Part shown: positions 1 through 8,328 of the stretch, one piece after another | Numbering within the stretch: the first letter of the stretch is position 1 | Layout: the number at the start of each line of letters is the position of its first letter | Assembly: GCF_056712565.1 (NCBI RefSeq) | Contig: NZ_JBWXXM010000005.1 | Direction: 5' to 3' (one strand) | Length of the DNA stretch: 8,328 nucleotides | Origin: a plasmid | Notes under the pieces: model-generated | What the model was told of the DNA's origin: nothing | Database searches by the model: none | Seen by the model: only the letters and a program-made list of their open reading frames with translations | Position numbers and translations under genes: made by a program

Positions 1-486
1 ACCAAGAGGCACACCAACAATAAAACTAAACATTAATGCCACAATTTTTGCCACACCTACATCGACCGCACTTTTCTCCAGCGTGATAAACAAAGGTCGC
101 CAGTTACCAGTTTCTATTGCATTTTTAAAATCAGAACCAACATCATATAGAAAAGATACTCGACTGGTGATTTTAAGCGACTTTGATATCTTCGTTAAAT
201 TCTTAGATAACTCATCATAATTAACAGACTCTAACGCATTAAAAATAGCATCCCGATCAACCTTACTGAATTTCTTATCCAGTACATTCTTATACTTTTC
301 AAATGCTGCCAGAGCTTCATCAACACCTTGAATTTTCTTTCCTTTAGACTTTTCCGCTAAATCCTGAGCAATTTTTGCGTATTTTTCTCCATATTGTTCG
401 GTTATATATTGATAAAATCCAACCATAGTATCAACAGCATCTTTTATCTGGCTCTTTTCAAGAGCATCCTGAGCTTCTTTTAATTT
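1..486 (-). CDS. cka: Pore-forming (channel) domain segment of the colicin gene, open to the window start but out of frame with the upstream part; partial at window edge
   Basis: Reverse-complement translation in the frame whose codons occupy (3,2,1),(6,5,4)... is stop-free from 498 down to 1: [166 protein letters not shown]. This matches the colicin E1/Ia/K/5/10 channel domain as I recall it (not searched). That frame has a stop at 499..501, so it cannot join the upstream ORF without a 1-nt correction. Confidence 0.85.
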
Positions 487-1556
487 CTGCTCTGCCTCTT
501 AACCTCAGCGGCCTTACCATCCCTGAAACTAACAGCATTCTTAAGTTCATTTTCAACTGCGGAGTACTCAGCCTGCTTAGCTTCAAGCTGACGCTGTAGT
601 TTTTTCTGAACGTCACGCCATCCCGGAAATCCGGTGACCTTCACGTCAACACTCTTCTGAGCGTTTTCAAGCTCTCCTGCAACTCTGGAAACAGTAGCTT
701 GCTTACTCTGTACATCACTTTCAGCCTTCGCCAGTTCAGCTTTCGCCTCAGCTAAACGCTTCTCTGCTTCCGCCACCGCCTGTTTCTCTTCATTAAGAGT
801 TTCATGTTCAGCGACCTCTGCATTTTCACGAGCCTTTTCTTCAGCTTCCTTCTGTTTATTCACATCACCAATTTTACTTTGCAATGTATTTTTATAAGAA
901 TTAAGTTTGCTAATATCTGCATCAAGCTGATTTGATTTTTTTTGCAACTCATCAACATCCCTCTCAAGATCAGTGATACCATGATAAGAATGATGCTTGA
1001 ATACTTTTTTCATCTCCTCGATTTTCTTCTGTTTTTCACTAATCTGTGTAGCAATTTTATTCTTCTGCTTTTGTTTTTCATTAATTACATTACCCACCAC
1101 CTTCGAACTCTTATCCATATCACTGACCTGAGCATTCGTTGGTGCAGTATTAACTGAAGCAGTGTTATTGTTGTTATTTCCTGAGCTTTCTGCAAAAAGT
1201 GATGGCATATCACTAATTAAAGAATTAAGAACTCTGGAGACCCCTCCAAATGGATTATCAACCAGAGTTGAATTATCTTCTGTCATAACAATACCATTCA
1301 TCACCGGAAGGCCATCATTATTAATGACAACATCACCCCACGGAGTCAGATATGACTCACCGGTTTTCATCACAGTTGATGTAGAACCAGATGAATTTGA
1401 ATTTCCCTGACCACCATTATTACCATGCCCAGAGCCACCACCCCAGTGAACCCCACTATTACTATTATTATTTCCACCTTGCTGATTCAGATTCGCCCCT
1501 GTTCCCCCCATAGACTCACCAGCAGTTGGTCCATATCCACTTAGTTCTTTAGCCAT
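480..1556 (-). CDS. cka: Colicin, N-terminal translocation and central coiled-coil/receptor-binding part (358 codons), ending at a premature stop caused by a frameshift
   Basis: ORF track 480..1556 (-). Gly/Asn/Ser-rich N-terminus followed by [36 protein letters not shown]...[13 protein letters not shown], which closely resembles my recollection of the colicin A Tol-dependent translocation domain ([38 protein letters not shown]...RVLNSLV). A long K/E/A-rich coiled-coil follows. SD-like AGAGGA lies 7 nt upstream of the ATG (minus strand, + coords 1563..1568). Assignment to colicin K specifically is circumstantial: total length would be about 548 codons if the frameshift were repaired, and the immunity protein is 96 aa. 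Confidence 0.92.
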
Positions 1557-1600
1557 AAATTCCTCTTTGATAATTAAAACAATAAATTAAAAACAATATA

Positions 1601-1631
1601 CTGTACATATAACCACTGGTTTTATGTACAG
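1601..1631 (-). promoter_or_regulatory. Tandem overlapping LexA boxes (SOS operator) of the colicin promoter
   Basis: Minus-strand sequence CTGTACATAAAACCAGTGGTTATATGTACAG contains two overlapping CTGT-N8-(A/C)CAG motifs, the double SOS box typical of colicin promoters. It lies about 45 bp upstream of the colicin ATG. A candidate -35 TTGACA is at 1659..1664 (minus strand). Confidence 0.85.
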
Positions 1632-1796
1632 TAAAAACCTACTACTCAGCATTGTCCATGTCAAGAGCATGGATTTTCATTTTTGCAATAAGGATCACAC
1701 TATGGGGAGGCAGGCATTGAGAACGTCGAAACAGAACACCGGAGCAAATCAGGATGAGATATAAAACTGTTGGATCATGAAAAAACGGAGAACGAT

Positions 1797-2087
1797 GTGA
1801 GCAAATCACCCCGCCATAAACTGAACAAAACAGACAAACGACTTCTCGACACCCTTGTTGCTGCCGGATATGAGCATGACAAAGCCCGTGACCTCATCCA
1901 GAAACAGGTTTACACGCTGACACTGGCTGATCAGCGTCATGTGGTCAGTGAAATCAGTAATGGTGTGAATCCCACCCAGGCTTACTCGGCGGTATACCAG
2001 GCAAGACGCATTCGCCTCGCCCGTAAATATCTGAACGGTAAAAAGGTTATGGAAGAAACCGGGGAAAATACGCCCCCATCAGCGTAA
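1797..2087 (+). CDS. Hypothetical small basic protein (96 aa from GTG 1797; 105 aa if TTG 1770 is used)
   Basis: ORF track 1770..2087 (+). There is no in-frame ATG near the 5' end; GTG at 1797 is preceded by GGAG (1788..1791) at good spacing. The product is hydrophilic and basic (VSKSPRHKLNKTDKRLLDTLVAAGYEHDKARDLI...). I do not recognise a family and it could be non-coding. Confidence 0.25.
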   Translation: MSKSPRHKLNKTDKRLLDTLVAAGYEHDKARDLIQKQVYTLTLADQRHVVSEISNGVNPTQAYSAVYQARRIRLARKYLNGKKVMEETGENTPPSA

Positions 2088-2357
2088 GGATTTCTTTTGC
2101 CGCTCCAGAGACTCCAGTTTTTTACGCAAATCCTCTCTTTTTTGGGCATCTCTGGTGCCAGCCAGCTCTGCTCTCAACTCATCGATCTGAAGTTGTATCT
2201 TCAGTCTGTTACTGAACATTTTCTGTCTGGCATTAACATCCGCAACAATGCCGTTTTTTGTCTTCTCGGCCTTTTGTTGAAAAACATTGCTGTCCGCATG
2301 ACTGGCAACCGAAGCAGAAAGAACACTAAAAAGCAGGACTGGCACACATTTTTTCAC
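2079..2357 (-). CDS. Small secreted/periplasmic protein with Sec signal peptide (92 aa, GTG start); candidate entry-exclusion or envelope protein
   Basis: ORF track 2079..2357 (-). N-terminus MKKCVPVLLFSVLSASVASHA/DSNVF has the n-, h- and c-regions of a signal peptide with an A-x-A-type cleavage site. The ~71-aa mature part is highly charged and helical. GTG start with AGGA about 9 nt upstream. The opposite-strand ORF 2097..2402 looks like antisense noise. Confidence 0.45.
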   Translation of the reverse strand: MKKCVPVLLFSVLSASVASHADSNVFQQKAEKTKNGIVADVNARQKMFSNRLKIQLQIDELRAELAGTRDAQKREDLRKKLESLERQKKSLR

Positions 2358-2478
2358 GGGATTATTCCTGACTCATTGACCATCAAATCACATTGGGAGT
2401 AAACCGACGTATGATAAGAGATACTCTTCGGAGATATAACTCCCTGAGTATCAAGATTAAAAACGCAAGGAGATGTTT

Positions 2479-2901
2479 ATGAGATCTGCCGCTGCCAGGC
2501 TGCTTCTGATACCTCTGATAACAGCAACAATAGCTCTTACAGGATGCACACCAAAGACCAGCCTGGAACGACATACCCGGCATTATGTTTATGCTTCAGA
2601 TGATGGATTTGATCCTAACTTCTACACCCAGAAAGCAGACACCATACGTATGATGCTCCCGTTCTTTCAGCAGTTCCGGGATATGGGGATGAAAGACAAA
2701 GCAGCCGGAGTATCAGCAGAAACGGCACAGCAACGTGTAAAAGAATTCCACTCAGAAAAATTTTTTCACTCACTCCGGAGCACAACAGCCTTTGCTGGCA
2801 GAAAATACACAAACAGCGATATGCCTTCGCCGAAAAAAATGAAACTAATGGCAGACACCATTTCTGCGGTTTATCTCGATGGATACGAGGGCAGACAGTA
2901 A
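2479..2901 (+). CDS. Lipoprotein (140 aa), possible entry-exclusion-type protein of ColE1-like plasmids
   Basis: ORF track 2473..2901; I prefer ATG 2479 because the SD AAGGA (2467..2471) is 7 nt upstream. N-terminus MRSAAARLLLIPLITATIALTGC is a signal peptide ending in the lipobox L-T-G-C. The position between colicin promoter and mob genes is where ColE1 carries exc genes as I remember it; homology was not verified. Confidence 0.65.
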   Translation: MRSAAARLLLIPLITATIALTGCTPKTSLERHTRHYVYASDDGFDPNFYTQKADTIRMMLPFFQQFRDMGMKDKAAGVSAETAQQRVKEFHSEKFFHSLRSTTAFAGRKYTNSDMPSPKKMKLMADTISAVYLDGYEGRQ

Positions 2902-3274
2902 GGGATTTACCATAATCCCTTAATTGTACGCACCGCTGAAATGCGTTCAGCGCGATCACGGCTGCTGACAGGTAAAAATGGCAACAAACCACCCGAAAAG
3001 CTGCCGCGATCGCACCTGATAAATTTTAACCGTATGCATAGCTATTCAGCCATGTGAATAACGCTGGTTTTGCCTGCGTAAACCTCATGACACTGTTTTT
3101 TTTCCATCTTTTCAGTTGATGACATACGCAGACATCGCGGGATGAGGCTGAGGAATGAGCGCGATCTGGCAAAGAGGCAAAACACAGCAACAAAAACGAC
3201 ACGCCAGAATCGCGCCCGGATGCGTTTTTAACGCGTTCCGGTACCATCTGGCAACCTCCCGGAACAACTCACCG

Positions 3275-4873
3275 TCACATCCCTATTGACGGGCCACGCC
3301 ATACCCGTGCTTCCCGTTCCTGCTCTTCATGCCAGGACCGCGCACGCTCCCGTTCCAGGCGTGCCTGCCTTTCCTGTTCATCCCTTATCTGCTGTTCGTG
3401 ATAAATAACCGACTCAAGTGGTCCACCTGCCCGGCTAATCTCTGCACCTGCTGACTCAAGTCGTCGCACTGTTCCCTCAGTTGCCCGTTCTCCTGTCGTG
3501 TCAGCTCGAACATATGCTGCAAATCCGTGAAGGCGCTCTCCCAGTCTTTCAGCCGCTGCGTATAGTCCTGCTGCAATTGCTCTAAGGCGTTCAGTAAGTG
3601 CATTTCCAGCTCTGTCATACTCACTTACTCCCTGACCAGTCTTACTGCGTTCTTCTTCTCCACCGTCCAGTTGTTTTCCCCCTTCACCCCGGACGGCAAC
3701 ACCAGAAATTTCCCGTTCCTGCCCTCGTGATACGTCACACCCCATGTTTTTTCCCGGAGTTTCGCCAGCGTCTCTTCCTGGTCCCTGATAGCCAGGATGT
3801 TCGCCGCAATCCGGCTTTCCTGCCACTGAATCAGCCCCCATGACGCCAGAAAAATCCCGCCCGTGACGCAAAGCGCCGTCAGCGACGGGTACAGTATCCG
3901 CCCTTTGACCAGCTTCCAGAGCAGCTCTTCCTGCCGCCGGGCCAGTTCGTTCTCTGTGGCGCTGAACTGCGCGTTCACGGCACTGTTCAGCGTCTCCAGT
4001 TGTTCTTTCACCGCTGCTGTGTGTGCGCTGATAGCGTCTCTGATTTTCTGCCCGTTTAAGTTCAGTTCCCTGTCTACAGACGCTTCGAGCTTCCTGAACT
4101 CGCTGTTCAGCATGTTCTCTGTAGAGACGGCACGCTCTTTCAGTTTCTTCTCGAAGTCTGTCCCCATTTGTAAAAGATTGCTCATACAGCGCCCCTTTCA
4201 GCCTGAGATTACGCCCACCCTCCGGGTCGGCGATACTGATACTGCTCCTGGTTGTCCTCACAACCTCAAAACCTGCCGCTGTAAGCGCCTCAGTGACATC
4301 CTGACGCGTTTTTAGCGCTCCGGCATGGTAAAGAGCCTCCAGTCCCCTCGTAATCGCTTCTGCGGCCTCCTGTTTCGCTTTCGGCAGATTATTCGGGGTG
4401 ACAAGTGTCCGCCTGTTCTCCGGTGCGTTCGGGTCGTGCAGCCCGTAATGGTGATTCACCAGTGTCTGCCAGGCATTGATTCGCGGACGGTCCGCTCGGT
4501 CGTAATAGGGCTGGAGCCGTTTTCCGCTCGCCAGCTCCATATTCGGGATGACAAAATTCAGCTCAAGACGCCCCTTGTCCTGGTGCTCCACCCACAGGAT
4601 GCTGTACTGATTTTTTTCAAGACCGGGCATCAGTACCCGCTCAAAGCTCTCCATCACCCTTTCACGCTCTCCCGGTGGCAGGGTCTGCTCTGCAAAAGAC
4701 AGAACCCCCGAGGTGTATTTTTTCGCAAACGGCGTGGCATCGATGAGTTCCCGCACCTCTTCGGGAGCACCCCGCAGAACTCTCGCCCCTTCCCGGTTAC
4801 GCTCCCGGCCCAGCAGGTAATCAACCGGACCACTGCCACCGCCTTTTCCCCTGGCATGAAACTTAACTATCAT
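3275..4873 (-). CDS. mbeA: Mobilization relaxase MbeA (ColE1-type, MOB HEN family)
   Basis: ORF track 3275..4900 (-). From the internal Met it reads MIVKFHARGKGGGSGPVDYLLGRERNREGA...ILWVEHQDKGRLELNFVIPNMEL...QPYYDRADRPRINAWQ, matching ColE1 MbeA as I recall it. The ATG at 4873..4871 overlaps the mbeC stop in the usual coupled arrangement. The compositionally odd C-terminal half fits mbeB and mbeD being encoded in other frames. Confidence 0.92.
   Translation of the reverse strand: MIVKFHARGKGGGSGPVDYLLGRERNREGARVLRGAPEEVRELIDATPFAKKYTSGVLSFAEQTLPPGERERVMESFERVLMPGLEKNQYSILWVEHQDKGRLELNFVIPNMELASGKRLQPYYDRADRPRINAWQTLVNHHYGLHDPNAPENRRTLVTPNNLPKAKQEAAEAITRGLEALYHAGALKTRQDVTEALTAAGFEVVRTTRSSISIADPEGGRNLRLKGALYEQSFTNGDRLREETERACRLYREHAEQRVQEARSVCRQGTELKRAENQRRYQRTHSSGERTTGDAEQCRERAVQRHRERTGPAAGRAALEAGQRADTVPVADGALRHGRDFSGVMGADSVAGKPDCGEHPGYQGPGRDAGETPGKNMGCDVSRGQEREISGVAVRGEGGKQLDGGEEERSKTGQGVSEYDRAGNALTERLRAIAAGLYAAAERLGERLHGFAAYVRADTTGERATEGTVRRLESAGAEISRAGGPLESVIYHEQQIRDEQERQARLERERARSWHEEQEREARVWRGPSIGM
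3385..3618 (-). CDS. mbeD: Mobilization protein MbeD, nested within the 3' part of mbeA in another frame
   Basis: ORF track 3385..3624 (-), product M(S)MTELEMHLLNALEQLQQDYTQRLKDWESAFTDLQHMFELTRQENGQLREQCDDLSQQVQRLAGQVDHLSRLF. ATG at 3618 with GGGAG upstream; an alternative GTG at 3624 abuts the mbeB stop. Confidence 0.75.
   Translation of the reverse strand: MTELEMHLLNALEQLQQDYTQRLKDWESAFTDLQHMFELTRQENGQLREQCDDLSQQVQRLAGQVDHLSRLFITNSR
3625..4185 (-). CDS. mbeB: Mobilization protein MbeB, nested within mbeA in another frame
   Basis: ORF track 3625..4185 (-), product MSNLLQMGTDFEKKLKERAVSTENMLNSEFRKLEASVDREL... with a hydrophobic segment (LYPSLTALCVTGGIFLASWGLI). SD-like AAAGGGG upstream of the ATG. 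The stop abuts the mbeD start. Confidence 0.8.
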   Translation of the reverse strand: MSNLLQMGTDFEKKLKERAVSTENMLNSEFRKLEASVDRELNLNGQKIRDAISAHTAAVKEQLETLNSAVNAQFSATENELARRQEELLWKLVKGRILYPSLTALCVTGGIFLASWGLIQWQESRIAANILAIRDQEETLAKLREKTWGVTYHEGRNGKFLVLPSGVKGENNWTVEKKNAVRLVRE

Positions 4874-5210
4874 CCCGTTCTCCCTGTTTACGGACCTCAT
4901 CCCTCAGCTCACTCAGTTCACGTCCGATGGCCATCAGTGCAGCCACCACATGAACCCGGTCATGCCCCGACCACTGTCCGCTGTTTATCTTCCGGGCTAT
5001 CTGATTCAGGTTATTGCCGACCGAAGCGAACTGGCGCAACAGCGGCGGTGCCAGTGTCGGAAGACCTGACGTTTTCGATGGCGGTGCCCCCAGGCAGACC
5101 TTACGCATCCATGACGCAAGTTGTTTTCCCTCACAACGTGCCAGCAGCCGCGCATGTTCCTCATCCGTGACCCGTATCGTGAGCATCCTTTCGCGTTTCA
5201 CCGGTATCAT
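4863..5210 (-). CDS. mbeC: Mobilization accessory protein MbeC (relaxosome component)
   Basis: ORF track 4863..5363 (-). The conserved part MLTIRVTDEEHARLLARCEGKQLASWMRKVCLG...LAPPLLRQFASVGNNLNQIARKINSG...HVVAALMAIGRELSELR matches ColE1 MbeC/MobC as I recall it. Start chosen at ATG 5210 (GGAGG 7 nt upstream); ATG 5186 is an alternative. The first 52 codons of the track ORF are treated as spurious. Confidence 0.85.
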   Translation of the reverse strand: MIPVKRERMLTIRVTDEEHARLLARCEGKQLASWMRKVCLGAPPSKTSGLPTLAPPLLRQFASVGNNLNQIARKINSGQWSGHDRVHVVAALMAIGRELSELRDEVRKQGERDDS

Positions 5211-5253
5211 TAAAAACCTCCGACAGACTCCCCACACATGGAGAAACAGAACT

Positions 5254-5445
5254 GTGACTAAACAGGAAAAAACCGCCCTTAACATGGCCCGCTTCATCAG
5301 AAGCCAGACGCTGACCCTGCTGGAAAAACTGAATGAACTGGACGCCGACGACCAGGCTGACATCTGCGAAGCGCTTCACGACCACGCTGACGAGCTTTAC
5401 CGCAGCTGCCTCGCACGCTTCGGAGATGACGGTGAAAACCTCTGA
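5254..5445 (+). CDS. rop: Rop/Rom RNA one modulator protein (63 aa, GTG start)
   Basis: VTKQEKTALNMARFIRSQTLTLLEKLNELDADDQADICEALHDHADELYRSCLARFGDDGENL is near-identical to ColE1/pMB1 Rop as I recall it. GTG start at 5254 with GGAG about 10 nt upstream. The ORF-track entry 5014..5445 is an in-frame upstream extension with no support. Confidence 0.93.
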   Translation: MTKQEKTALNMARFIRSQTLTLLEKLNELDADDQADICEALHDHADELYRSCLARFGDDGENL

Positions 5446-5535
5446 CACATGCAGCTCCCGGAGACGGTCACAGCTGGCCTGTGAGCGGATGCCGGGAGCA
5501 GACAAGCCCGTCAGGGCGCGTCAGCGGGTTTTAGC

Positions 5536-5600
5536 GGGTGTCGGGGCGCAGCCATGACCCAGTCACGTAGCGATAGCGGAGTGTATACTGGCTTAATCAT
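5536..5600. other. bom / oriT region (basis of mobility) with relaxase nic region
   Basis: Sequence gggtgtcggggcgcagccatgacccagtcacgtagcgatagcggagtgtatactggcttaa corresponds to the pMB1/ColE1 bom region as I recall it, including the ...TATACTGGCTTAA... nic region. It sits between rop and the origin as in pBR322. Confidence 0.6.
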
Positions 5601-6253
5601 TTGGCATCAGTGAGGATTGTATGAAAAGTGCACCATGCCGGGTGTGAAATGCCGCACAGATGCGTAAGGAGAAAATGCTCGTCCAGGCGCTTTTCCGCTT
5701 CCTCGCTCACTGACTCGCTCCGCTCGGTCGTTCGGCTGCGGCGAGCGGTATCAGCTCACTCAAAGACGGTAATGCGGTTATCCACAGAATCAGGGGATAA
5801 CACCAAAAGAAACATGTGAGCAAAAAACAAGAACCCGGAAAAGGCCACGCAGCTGGCGTTTTTCCATAGGCTCCGCCCCCCTGACGAGCATCACAAAAAC
5901 CGACGCTCAAGTCAGAGGTGGCGAAACCCGACAGGACTTAAAGATACCAGGCGTTTCCCCCTGGTGGCTCCCTCGTGCGCTCTCCTGTTCCGACCCTGCC
6001 GCTTACCGGATACCTGTCCGCCTTTCTCCCTTTGGGAAGCGTGGCGCTTTCTCATAGCTCACGCTGTTGGTATCTCAGTTCGGTGTAGGTCGTTCGCTCC
6101 AAGCTGGGCTGTGTGCACGAACCCCCCGTTCAGCCCGACCGCTGCGCCTTATCCGGTAACTATCGTCTTGAGTCCAACCCGGTAAGACACGACTTAACGC
6201 CACTGGCAGCAGCCATTGGTAACTGGATAGTGGATTTAGATACGCAGAACTCT

Positions 6254-6281
6254 TGAAGTTGAAGCCTTATAGCGGCTACAC
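6254..6281 (+). promoter_or_regulatory. RNAI promoter (-35 TTGAAG, -10 TACACT)
   Basis: TTGAAG at 6254..6259, a 16-nt spacer, TACACT at 6276..6281, then the RNAI start about 6289. Same architecture as pMB1. Confidence 0.65.
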
Positions 6282-6288
6282 TGGAAGG

Positions 6289-6392
6289 ACAGCATTTGGT
6301 ATCTGTGCTCCACTAAAGCCAGTTACCCGGTTAAGCAGTCCCCAACTGACTTAACCTTCGACTAAACCGCCTCCCCAGGCGGTTTTTTCGTT
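6289..6392 (+). ncRNA. RNAI antisense copy-number control RNA
   Basis: Starts at ACAGCATTTGGTATCTG (pMB1 RNAI starts ACAGTATTTGGTATCTG) and ends at the hairpin plus T-run ...ccgcctccccaggcggttttttcgtt. Its promoter has -35 TTGAAG (6254..6259) and -10 TACACT (6276..6281) as in pMB1. Loop sequences differ from pMB1. Confidence 0.8.
6364..6392 (+). terminator. RNAI intrinsic terminator
   Basis: Stem aaaccgcct / aggcggttt with loop cccc, followed by a T-run (ttttttcgtt). Confidence 0.7.
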
Positions 6393-6402
6393 TACAGGCA
6401 GC

Positions 6403-6432
6403 AGATTACGCGCAGAAAAAAAGGATCTCAAG
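6403..6432 (-). promoter_or_regulatory. RNAII promoter (-35 TTGAGA, -10 TAATCT on minus strand)
   Basis: Minus-strand sequence cttcTTGAGAtcctttttttctgcgcgTAATCTgctgcctGTAAAC has a 17-nt spacer and matches the pMB1 RNAII promoter as I recall it. Confidence 0.7.
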
Positions 6433-6454
6433 AAGATCCTTTGATCTTTTCTAC

Positions 6455-6459
6455 TGAAC
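6455..6459. repeat. IS2 target-site duplication (TGAAC), right-end copy
   Basis: TGAAC immediately outside the IS2 end at 6460; an identical TGAAC lies at 7791..7795 outside the other end. IS2 is known to make 5-bp duplications. Confidence 0.85.
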
Positions 6460-6500
6460 TGGATTTGCCCCTATATTTCCAGACACCTGTTATCACTTAA
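6460..6500. repeat. IS2 terminal inverted repeat (IRR)
   Basis: Imperfect inverted repeat partner of 7749..7790; shared core CCAGACA...ATATCACTTA. Confidence 0.8.
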
Positions 6501-7376
6501 CCCATTACTGGCTTGCTGCCGTAGATATTCCCGTGGCGAGCGATAACCCAGTGCACTATGCGGATGCCATTCGTTATAATGCTCGAACGCCTCTGCAAGG
6601 TTCTTTGCTGCCGTTAACCCGTCTGGTTTGGGCATGACACTGATGTAGTCACGCTTTATCGTTTTCACGAAGCTCTCTGCTATGCCGTTACTCTCCGGAC
6701 TCCGCACCGCCGTGCTCTTCGGTTCAAGCCCCAACATCCGGGCAAACTGCCGTGTTTCATTAGCCCGGTAGCATGAACCATTATCCGTCAGCCACTCTAC
6801 TGGAGACGCCGGAAGCTCGTTGCCGAAGCGGCGTTCCACCGCTCCCAGCATGACGTCCTGTACTGTTTCACTGTTGAAGCCGCCCGTAGTGACCGCCCAG
6901 TGCAGTGCCTCACGGTCACAGCAGTCCAGCGCGAACGTGACTCGCAGTTTTTCTCCGTTATCACAGCGGAACTCGAACCCGTCAGAGCACCATCGCTGAT
7001 TACTTTCTTTCACAGCCACTCTGCCTGTATGTGCCCGTTTCGATGGCGGTACAGCAGGTTTTCGCTCAAGCAACAGCGCATTCTGGCGCATGATCCGGTA
7101 AACACGTTTGGCATTGATCGCAGGCATACCATCAAGTTCTGCCTGTCTGCGAAGCAGCGCCCATACCCGACGATAACCATACGTGGGCAGCTCTCCGATA
7201 ACATGGTGTATACGGAGAAGCACATCCGTATCATCAGTGTGACGACTGCGGCGGCCATCCATCCAGTCATCGGTTCGTCTGAGAATGACGTGCAACTGCG
7301 CACGCGACACCCGGAGACAACGGCTGACTAAGCTTACTCCCCATCCCCGGGCAATAAGGGCGCGTGCGCTATCCAC
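6471..7376 (-). CDS. insD: IS2 transposase OrfB (InsD), normally expressed as an OrfAB fusion by -1 frameshifting
   Basis: ORF track 6471..7376 (-) 301 aa, (M/V)[33 protein letters not shown]...[12 protein letters not shown]... with a DDE-type integrase core (...[37 protein letters not shown]...). The first codon is GTG and overlaps the end of insC. Confidence 0.95.
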
Positions 7377-7699
7377 TTTTTTGCCCGTCCATATTCAACG
7401 GCTTCTTTGAGGAGTTCATTTTCCATCGTTTTCTTGCCGAGCAGGCGCTGGAGTTCTTTAATCTGCTTCATGGCGGCAGCAAGTTCAGAGGCAGGAACAA
7501 CCTGTTCTCCGGCGGCGACAGCAGTAAGACTTCCTTCCTGGTATTGCTTACGCCAGAGAAATAACTGGCTGGCTGCTACACCATGTTGCCGGGCAACGAG
7601 GGAGACCGTCATCCCTGGTTCAAAGCTCTGCTGAACAATTGCGATCTTTTCCTGTGTGGTACGCCGTCTGCGTTTCTCCGGTCCTAAGACATCAATCAT
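7334..7699 (-). CDS. insC: IS2 OrfA (InsC), helix-turn-helix regulator / N-terminal part of the transposase
   Basis: From ATG at 7699: [58 protein letters not shown]...[26 protein letters not shown]. The 15 extra N-terminal codons in the track ORF 7334..7744 are rejected. Confidence 0.93.
7377..7383 (-). other. IS2 programmed -1 ribosomal frameshift heptamer (A AAA AAG) at the insC/insD overlap
   Basis: Minus-strand sequence ggcA AAA AAG tgg is in the OrfA zero frame. A -1 slip reads AAA AAA GTG GAT AGC = KKVDS..., continuing into InsD. This is a known IS3-family mechanism. Confidence 0.7.
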
Positions 7700-7748
7700 C
7701 TGCTCTCCAATGACTAGTCTAAAAACTAGTATTAAGACTATCACTTAA

Positions 7749-7790
7749 ATAAGTGATATTGGTTGTCTGGAGATTCAGGGGGCCAGTCTA
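7749..7790. repeat. IS2 terminal inverted repeat (IRL)
   Basis: Reverse complement from 7790 reads TAGACTGGCCCCCTGAATCTCCAGACAACCAATATCACTTA... The lysis-gene reading frame terminates inside this repeat at TGA 7775..7777. Confidence 0.8.
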
Positions 7791-7918
7791 TGAACCGCGA
7801 TCCCCGTCAGTTCAGAAGACGAAGATGGTGCAACGGTTCCTCCTTGTACATCACGAATATAGTTTGCTTGACATCCTGACAAGAATAATATTGTAATTAG
7901 AAAAATTATTATTTTCAT
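7775..7918 (-). CDS. ckl: Colicin lysis (bacteriocin release) lipoprotein, with its 3' end altered by the IS2 insertion (47 codons; ends ...GIAV-HRLAP)
   Basis: Not in the ORF track (short). Reverse complement of 7793..7918 translates [42 protein letters not shown], with signal peptide, lipobox L-S-G-C and the [14 protein letters not shown] motif typical of colicin lysis proteins. Reading continues across the TSD into the IS2 IRL (H R L A P, stop TGA at 7775..7777). The displaced native end (Q codon and TAG) lies at 6451..6456 on the other side of IS2. Confidence 0.8.
7791..7795. repeat. IS2 target-site duplication (TGAAC), left-end copy
   Basis: TGAAC directly abutting the IS2 end at 7790; identical to 6455..6459. 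Confidence 0.85.
7868..7897 (+). promoter_or_regulatory. Candidate immunity-gene promoter located inside the lysis-gene coding region
   Basis: TTGACA at 7868..7873, an 18-nt spacer, TGTAAT at 7892..7897, about 50 bp upstream of the immunity ATG at 7948. Confidence 0.4.
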
Positions 7919-7947
7919 ATTTCTTTCCAACAAAAGTAAAAATACTT

Positions 7948-8238
7948 ATGCATTTAAAATACTACCTACATAATTTACCTGAATCACTTATACCATGGAT
8001 TCTTATTTTAATATTTAACGACAATGATAACACTCCTTTGTTATTTATATTTATATCATCAATACATGTATTGCTATATCCATACTCTAAATTAACCATA
8101 TCTAGATATATCAAAGAAAATACAAAGTTAAAAAAAGAACCCTGGTACTTATGCAAGTTATCTGCATTGTTTTATTTATTAATGGCAATCCCAGTAGGAT
8201 TGCCAAGTTTCATATATTACACTCTAAAGAGAAATTAA
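7948..8238 (+). CDS. cki: Pore-forming colicin immunity protein (96 aa, integral inner-membrane protein)
   Basis: ORF track 7948..8238 (+). Very AT-rich and hydrophobic (…[33 protein letters not shown]…[26 protein letters not shown]), consistent with several membrane spans. It is convergent with the colicin gene and sits between colicin and lysis genes on the opposite strand, the canonical arrangement for pore-former immunity genes. Its stop (8236..8238) overlaps the colicin stop (8235..8237). Confidence 0.8.
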
Positions 8239-8328
8239 ATCCCTAACAACTCATTAAGTTTGCTCAACTCATCATCCCCTATGTAAGAAGAAACAATACC
8301 TGTGACAATTGCAATCCCCCAGAAACCA
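8235..8328 (-). CDS. cka: C-terminal tail of the colicin gene (last 29 codons plus stop), continuing from the window start across the circular junction
   Basis: Reverse complement of 8235..8327 translates [30 protein letters not shown]-stop, the end of the hydrophobic hairpin and C-terminus of a pore-forming colicin. The stop TAA is the reverse complement of 8235..8237. Window 8325..8328 (acca) equals window 1..4 (acca), and joining 8324 to 1 gives a continuous ...[15 protein letters not shown]... reading frame. Confidence 0.75.

Follow-up and report, generated by a model that had tools for sequence, protein, structure and literature searches.

The window, a stretch of 8328 nt, is a complete circular, mobilizable colicin K plasmid of the ColE1 type whose base composition is far from uniform. 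We consider it likely that this GC heterogeneity reflects the known modular (mosaic) structure of ColE1-type colicin plasmids. In the arrangement that we propose, an AT-rich pore-former cassette (SOS promoter, cka, cki and the signal-peptide region of the lysis gene) would be set into a backbone (ori with RNAI/RNAII, rop, mbe and ckr) with a GC content of ~0.55-0.57, similar to that of enterobacterial hosts, and would be flanked on one side by a block of intermediate GC containing orf105, orf92 and exc2. The differences in composition, the breakpoints and the discordant identities between plasmids were observed directly. A first-pass annotation of the same DNA had described modules of different histories joined by recombination; judged by our sequence comparisons, this interpretation appears right in spirit and is partly supported.

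The window is a colicin K plasmid

Across 100% of its length, the window is 99.4% identical to pColK-K235 (NC_006881.1), the reference colicin K plasmid, and like it contains the cka-cki-ckl operon, the exc2 block, the ckr site, the mbe genes, rop, ori and one IS2. IS-free ColK plasmids of 6988 bp (e.g. pSCU-103-4, CP054461.1), which are common in E. coli, Shigella and Salmonella, match the 84% of the window outside IS2 at 99.8-100% identity. They differ from it in lacking IS2, in having intact cka and lysis genes and in a ckr core whose central region is 1 nt shorter. The ends of the window carry a 4-nt redundancy (ACCA at 8325-8328, followed by ACCA at 1-4) that is missing from the IS-free ColK plasmids. 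It is most likely an untrimmed overlap from a circularising assembly, and the true plasmid size is probably 8324 bp.

The intermediate-GC block, the backbone and the insertion sequence comprise the following features.

1698..2904: orf105/96 (plus strand), orf92 (minus strand) and exc2 (plus strand), the intermediate-GC block, GC 0.46
2479-2901, plus strand: exc2 lipoprotein gene (NCBIfam NF033828 Exc2, E 4e-53)
2905..2934, minus strand: cer-like XerCD core, the ckr site of ColK
3275..5186, minus strand: mobilization genes, GC 0.566
3275-4873, minus strand: mbeA relaxase gene (NCBIfam relax_MbeA_E1, E 1e-215, 717 bits, cut-off 500), GC 0.563
3385-3618, minus strand: mbeD, nested in mbeA (NCBIfam MbeD, E 2e-35, 121 bits, cut-off 60)
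3625-4185, minus strand: mbeB, nested in mbeA, named from the annotation of homologues
4863-5186, minus strand: mbeC, upstream of mbeA (Pfam MobC domain), GC 0.579
5254..5445, plus strand: rop (Pfam PF01815 Rop, E 9e-37), GC 0.557-0.561
~5841-6393 (inferred position), minus strand: RNAII/ori region, GC 0.553
6291..6391, plus strand: RNAI, antisense copy-number regulator (Rfam RF00106, 77.4 bits, gathering score 47, E 2e-13)
6460..7790, minus strand: IS2 (IS3 family), 1331 bp, with rve, rve_3 and HTH_21 domains, GC 0.530

The full set of an MbeA-type (MOBP5/HEN) relaxase with accessory MbeB, MbeC and MbeD is present in the window. A search of the window for a pBR322-type bom/nic sequence, as a marker of oriT, gave no match at up to 3 mismatches. 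None of Cki, the lysis protein, MbeB, orf105 and orf92 was assigned to an NCBIfam family; SMC-like NCBIfam matches to colicin K scored far under the cut-off and were rejected as coiled-coil noise.

The colicin, immunity and lysis genes occupy the remainder of the window and run across its origin.

7775..7918, minus strand: lysis gene ckl (Pfam PF02402 Lysis_col, E 3e-23)
7948..8238, plus strand: cki, colicin K immunity gene, a 96-aa ORF (Pfam PF17500 CKI, E 9e-57)
8235..8328, minus strand: final ~30 codons of cka, which overlap the stop codon of cki, placed from the annotation of pSCU-103-4 and pColK-K235 and an alignment across the origin
1..499, minus strand: 3' part of cka, out of frame, encoding the pore-forming domain and continuing across the window origin to 8235-8328, GC 0.355
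480..1556, minus strand: 5' two-thirds of cka, from the ORF list, ending early at 358 aa, GC 0.41, GC3 0.32
1557..1697, minus strand: cka promoter region, forming a conserved flank on the 5' side of the cassette, GC 0.284

Judged by the Colicin pore domain, CKI, Lysis_col and the palindromes upstream, these genes form an SOS-regulated colicin/immunity/lysis operon, in which cka is here frameshifted and the C-terminus of the lysis protein altered. The palindromes, two overlapping CTG-N10-CAG/CAC elements (ACTGTACATATAACCACTGGTTTTATGTACAGTA) at 1600-1636 upstream of cka, resemble LexA boxes; as a pair they correspond to the double LexA operator that colicin promoters typically carry.

Base composition falls into four tiers

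Whole-window GC is 0.485, and values by feature range from 0.26 in cki, through ~0.39 in cka and 0.44-0.51 in orf105, orf92 and exc2, to 0.52-0.58 in mob, rop and ori. The intergenic region between ckl and cki has a GC content of 0.207. The lowest sliding interval of 291 nt (start 7884) reaches 0.227, compared with a lowest value of 0.337 among 1000 shuffles, and the standard deviation of interval GC is three times the binomial value (0.088 versus 0.029). By BIC, a two-segment model was preferred over one segment in none of 200 shuffles. The sliding profile is thus far from flat, which bears out the by-eye contrast in the first-pass annotation between AT-rich colicin, immunity and lysis genes and a GC-rich mob-rep backbone; the shuffles and the BIC segmentation agree with it. 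Both the base composition and the codon usage of the AT-rich module differ from those of its flanks beyond chance.

The same annotation had pictured a join of two parts. The BIC-optimal segmentation, carried out with IS2 removed and with the circle rotated in two ways, instead gave four composition tiers (~0.55, 0.21, 0.38 and 0.46).

~3128 through mob, rop and ori to ~60-80 nt into the lysis gene: GC ~0.55-0.56
~7856/7879-8138: 5' part of the lysis gene, intergenic region and most of cki, GC ~0.21
8139-1697: 3' end of cki, cka and promoter, GC ~0.38
1698-3127: orf105, orf92, exc2 and ckr, GC ~0.46

One change point, at ~1690-1697, coincides with the edge of the cka promoter; another, at ~3127, does not fall exactly at the homology breakpoints at 2905-3052. 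The coordinates 7948..8238 under which the mosaic had been noted are exactly those of the cki ORF, and cki is the AT-rich core (GC 0.261-0.264, GC3 0.258). The colicin gene, which had been called strongly AT-rich as well, is AT-rich only to a moderate degree (whole cka, GC ~0.39, GC3 0.31). Within cka, positions 488-787 form a sub-block of higher GC (~0.48-0.50), for which BIC does not prefer extra segments; its upper edge lies near 807, where the colicin 5/10-like homology of plasmid pACN001-E ends, a hint that the gene itself is compositionally mosaic at the level of its domains.

The sharpest GC step lies within the lysis gene

The sharpest GC step (~7856-7878) does not separate genes but falls inside ckl. 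Overall, the lysis gene has a GC content of 0.38-0.40, split between a signal-peptide part (7879-7918) at 0.125 and a mature part (7796-7878) at 0.494. The description of this gene as strongly AT-rich therefore applies to its 5' third only.

The homology of ColE1, Col10 and Klebsiella klebicin plasmids to the window stops at the same step. Matches of the lysis gene to ColE1 and Klebsiella are limited to 7787-7876/7888, and the Klebsiella plasmids share ~85% identity over 5910-6456 and 7791-7874/7888. In the multiple alignment, a block of ~130 nt is kept in all aligned plasmids; it starts at the terminator hairpin beside the RNAII promoter, takes in the codons of the mature peptide and ends with the lipobox Cys codon. 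Beyond this codon similarity collapses, at the place where GC also changes. The 3' half of the lysis gene together with the terminator travels with ori and is backbone-like in both GC and homology, so that of the lysis gene only the 5' part belongs to the AT-rich module in which the whole gene had been placed.

Discordant identities between plasmids mark exchanged modules

Whole-plasmid BLAST maps were made for six plasmids, and further plasmids were compared by DNA alignment or search. Plasmid pACN001-E is 98.9% identical to the window over 1547-6459 and 99.3% over 7787-8328, which covers the backbone, cki and the lysis gene. Its colicin gene is 86.6% identical over 1-807 (colicin 5/10-like) and has no similarity over 808-1546; the N-terminal two-thirds of its colicin are different, and the N-terminal domains have been swapped. 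A Col10-like plasmid (NZ_CP077648.1) shows the reverse distribution, with 99.2% identity over 1547-2956 (cka promoter, orf105, orf92 and exc2), only 76.5% in ori/rop, 75% in the cki/ckl region and no similarity to the mbe genes. This pattern points to a recent exchange of the block 1547-2956. A ColS4 plasmid is 96% identical over 1410-3052, from the cka N-terminus and promoter to exc2, and carries unrelated immunity and lysis genes. Across these colicin 5/10 and S4 plasmids (pACN001-E, p2_ST866, pRHB23-C18_3), single modules are 96-99% identical to ColK while others are unrelated or 75-87% identical, and the family is therefore mosaic.

ColE1 itself (e.g. pYLPI7d, NZ_CP074037.1) has the same architecture and compositional pattern as ColK. 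Its identity to the window is 83.5% over 4031-6459 (ori and mob), extends across 7787-7876 in the lysis gene and goes no further. The ColE1 pore domain is ~70% identical to that of ColK, the two immunity genes cannot be aligned as DNA, and an exc1-like gene stands in place of ColK orf105/orf92.

The module is also found on other backbones. Large conjugative plasmids of 108-130 kb carry cki with ~95-98% amino-acid identity, and an orphan occurs in pLAO42 (NZ_OP242235.1). In the latter, positions 6838-7669 hold a remnant comprising cki, ckl and the 3' end of cka that is 99.5% identical to the window; this remnant adjoins a transposase gene, and an E1-like colicin lies elsewhere on the same plasmid.

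Comparison with other ColE1-family colicin plasmids, which the first-pass annotation had suggested as a check, places the module boundaries at the conserved SOS promoter, within the lysis gene at its conserved 3' end and terminator, and at the cer-like core. The proposal of separate origins joined by recombination holds to the extent that modules have moved independently, as the discordant identities reveal; this follows from comparison between plasmids and not from GC. For the first two boundaries, we infer that exchange would have proceeded by homologous recombination between short sequences that colicin plasmids have in common, namely the ~140-bp LexA-regulated promoter and the ~130 bp of the lysis 3' half plus terminator by the RNAII promoter. 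Over the cka promoter (~140 nt), ColE1 and numerous colicin, klebicin and pesticin plasmids share 72-82% identity with the window.

A cer-like core borders cargo and mobilization backbone

The third boundary begins three bases past the exc2 stop codon. Here the window contains an exact 30/30 match, with 0 expected by chance, to GGTGCGTACAATTAAGGGATTATGGTAAAT, a 30-nt sequence that we take to be the ColE1 cer XerC/XerD core. The core is identical in ColE1 and 11 other loci, and in a backbone search the homology of many cryptic, otherwise unrelated small ColE1-like plasmids begins at window position 2904/2905. In an alignment of nine plasmids, the flanks change exactly at the edges of the core, which is itself identical save for a 1-nt deletion in two of them. 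Its central region measures 8 nt in the window, pColK-K235 and ColE1, and 7 nt in pSCU-103-4 and a ColS4 plasmid. To the left lies either exc2 or unrelated cargo and to the right one of two types of accessory sequence, with all four combinations found.

From its sequence, the core is a predicted multimer-resolution site, and it marks the border between cargo and mob backbone. A second route of exchange may accordingly be open here, in which XerCD site-specific recombination at the core would act through the formation and resolution of cointegrates. ColE1-like plasmids have been proposed to evolve through cointegrates, with recombination at oriT and cer postulated (PMC8683028), and Xer sites have been tied to plasmid evolution via cointegrates (PMC6764390). 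The flank pattern fits this published proposal of cointegrate formation and resolution. Homologous recombination confined to the 30-40 bp that are conserved here could equally account for the switching of flanks.

AT-richness is an old trait of the cassette family

Cki is a small membrane protein with many I, L, F, Y, N and K residues, which have AT-rich codons. When the same protein is encoded with the synonymous preferences of mbeA-D and rop, the expected GC is 0.415, compared with 0.264 observed and ~0.56 in the backbone; for colicin K, the corresponding values are 0.480 expected and 0.394 observed. About half of the cki deficit is therefore due to amino-acid composition, and the rest is synonymous AT bias. 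The GC3 of 0.26 contradicts an explanation by amino-acid composition alone, and the codon choices are of the same kind (ATA for 7 of 11 Ile, TTA for 10 of 19 Leu and AGA for both Arg). Low GC, which had been read as a sign of separate origin, does not by itself show foreign descent: composition alone overstates the case, as about half of the cki deficit lies in the amino acids and the boundary runs through the lysis gene.

The cassette is nevertheless an outlier. In Enterobacterales, GC averages 53.0% genome-wide, 52.8% at ori and 57.7% in the relaxase (PMC8683028), and the backbone of the window is host-like. Immunity genes of other members of the family have GC contents of 0.285 (ColE1), 0.302 (colicin 10-like) and 0.337 (S4). 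The colicin genes of E1, 10-like and S4 plasmids are at 0.42-0.44 (cea of ColE1, 0.424) with GC3 ~0.31-0.33, and mob and rop at 0.52-0.61; in a Klebsiella klebicin plasmid, GC dips to 0.39-0.44 at the bacteriocin genes versus 0.50-0.66 elsewhere. Since the immunity genes of E1, 10 and S4 are equally AT-rich, low GC is an old property of the family. No low-GC donor lineage for Cki is visible in a tblastn search of 72,556 plasmids, because its relatives occur only in plasmids of Escherichia (63 matches), Salmonella (5) and Shigella (4). Pore-former colicin operons have this old AT-richness in common, and it is made up of amino-acid composition and a strong synonymous AT bias towards codons rare in E. 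coli.

A possible, if less favoured, explanation is that AT-richness is functional, kept by selection, and says nothing about origin. The causes proposed are membrane and signal-peptide residues, an AT-rich promoter and operator, rare ATA, TTA and AGA codons that would throttle or condition translation of the colicin and immunity genes, and candidate H-NS silencing. Several of our observations are of the kind this would predict: the amino acids of Cki take the expected GC from the backbone value about half of the way down before any codon bias is considered (~0.56 to 0.415), GC is lowest (0.125) where the lysis gene encodes its signal peptide and reaches only 0.284 in the promoter, codons rare in E. 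coli are enriched in cki, and the E1, 10, S4 and K cassettes all stay low in GC in hosts of ~51-53% GC. The codon bias could be read functionally in the light of the codon-usage-based, ppGpp-dependent regulation of colicin K synthesis reportedly described by Kuhar et al. 2001. Selection on function leaves unexplained the discordant identities and shared breakpoints, that is, the real exchange of modules, and cka itself is not markedly enriched in the rarest codons. It is compatible with the mosaic structure that we favour rather than exclusive of it. In a more specific and tentative form, the AT-richness of the lysis 5' part and cki (GC 0.12-0.26; ATA, TTA, AGA) might be an actively maintained regulatory device and not a foreign fossil, with rare-codon/ppGpp control of translation or H-NS-type silencing as candidates; the GC step between the lysis signal peptide and mature part might then be a recombination hot spot for swapping tuned cassettes between replicons.

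We regard it as improbable that accessory or mobile DNA, its cargo genes under weaker or episodic selection, has simply drifted towards AT by mutational bias, without separate origin, while RNA structure and overlapping genes held the backbone GC-rich. Constraints on the backbone are indeed strong (RNAI/RNAII, and mbeB and mbeD overlapping mbeA with GC3 0.72-0.74), and the tiers are graded rather than of two classes. However, the Cki protein is 100% conserved across dozens of plasmids and is essential to producers, which argues that cki is not under relaxed selection; moreover, the sharp GC steps fall at homology breakpoints, and IS2, also mobile DNA, has a GC content of 0.53. That the GC step beside cki was created by the insertion of IS2, or by the way the window was cut and rotated, is scarcely credible: although IS2 (GC 0.53) abuts the lysis gene at 7790/7791, so that the local step looks sharper than it was ancestrally, the segmentation with IS2 removed and the circle rotated gives the same change point (7856-7878) and tiers, which rules IS2 out as the cause, and the 6988-bp plasmids without the element agree with the window in gene content and, at 99.8-100% identity, in sequence.

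An IS2 in the lysis gene and a 1-nt deletion in cka

What shows as an abrupt step at 7790, unnoticed in the first-pass annotation, is the junction of IS2 and not the ancestral step. The element is identified by its length of ~1.33 kb, two overlapping transposase ORFs with rve, terminal inverted repeats at its ends and a 5-bp target duplication (TGAAC at 6455-6459 and 7791-7795). It lies in the last codon of the lysis gene, changing the C-terminus from ...GIAVQ to ...GIAVHRLAP (each followed by a stop codon), and splits the colicin operon from its terminator hairpin (~6418-6452). The IS2 of pColK-K235 occupies a different position, upstream of cka (window-equivalent ~1880), and is 97.6% identical to the copy in the window. 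No PLSDB record contains the junction of IS2 with the lysis gene, and a search of 5,426 complete E. coli genomes gave no match covering at least 80% of the query. IS2 is not part of the ancestral mosaic, because the 6988-bp ColK plasmids do not contain it.

In cka, a 1-nt deletion at ~497-500 on the minus strand changes CTCTTTAAC to CTCTTAAC (TTT to TT) relative to pColK-K235 and pSCU-103-4. The ORF consequently stops at 480, and the whole pore-forming domain is missing; in pSCU-103-4, where the gene is intact, Pfam places the Colicin pore domain at aa 364-545 and also identifies ColA_N. Either a genuine inactivating mutation or an error in sequencing could account for the missing base.

Implications for colicin plasmids

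Modular mosaics in the ColE1 family, with low-GC colicin cassettes set against the backbone, have been described repeatedly (PMC5864857, PMC8683028, PMC6668396). In the colicin Z plasmid pColZ, the colicin and immunity genes have 39% GC versus 45% in the rest, which was read as horizontal acquisition and recombination (PMC6668396); this is a different colicin with a smaller contrast than that of ColK (0.26-0.39 versus 0.55). As mosaic plasmids of the ColE1 type, the ColK type included, have been published, the GC mosaic of ColK is already known for the plasmid family. The sequencing of pColK-K235 by Rijavec et al. 2007 (AEM 73:1029) is said to have described it as a mosaic with IS2.

Our analysis therefore carries little weight as a discovery, and its use lies in a precise map of four GC tiers and three breakpoints. 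The IS2 insertion and the cka frameshift may be of interest to those tracking colicin plasmids: if both are real, this plasmid would give immunity without colicin production or normal lysis.
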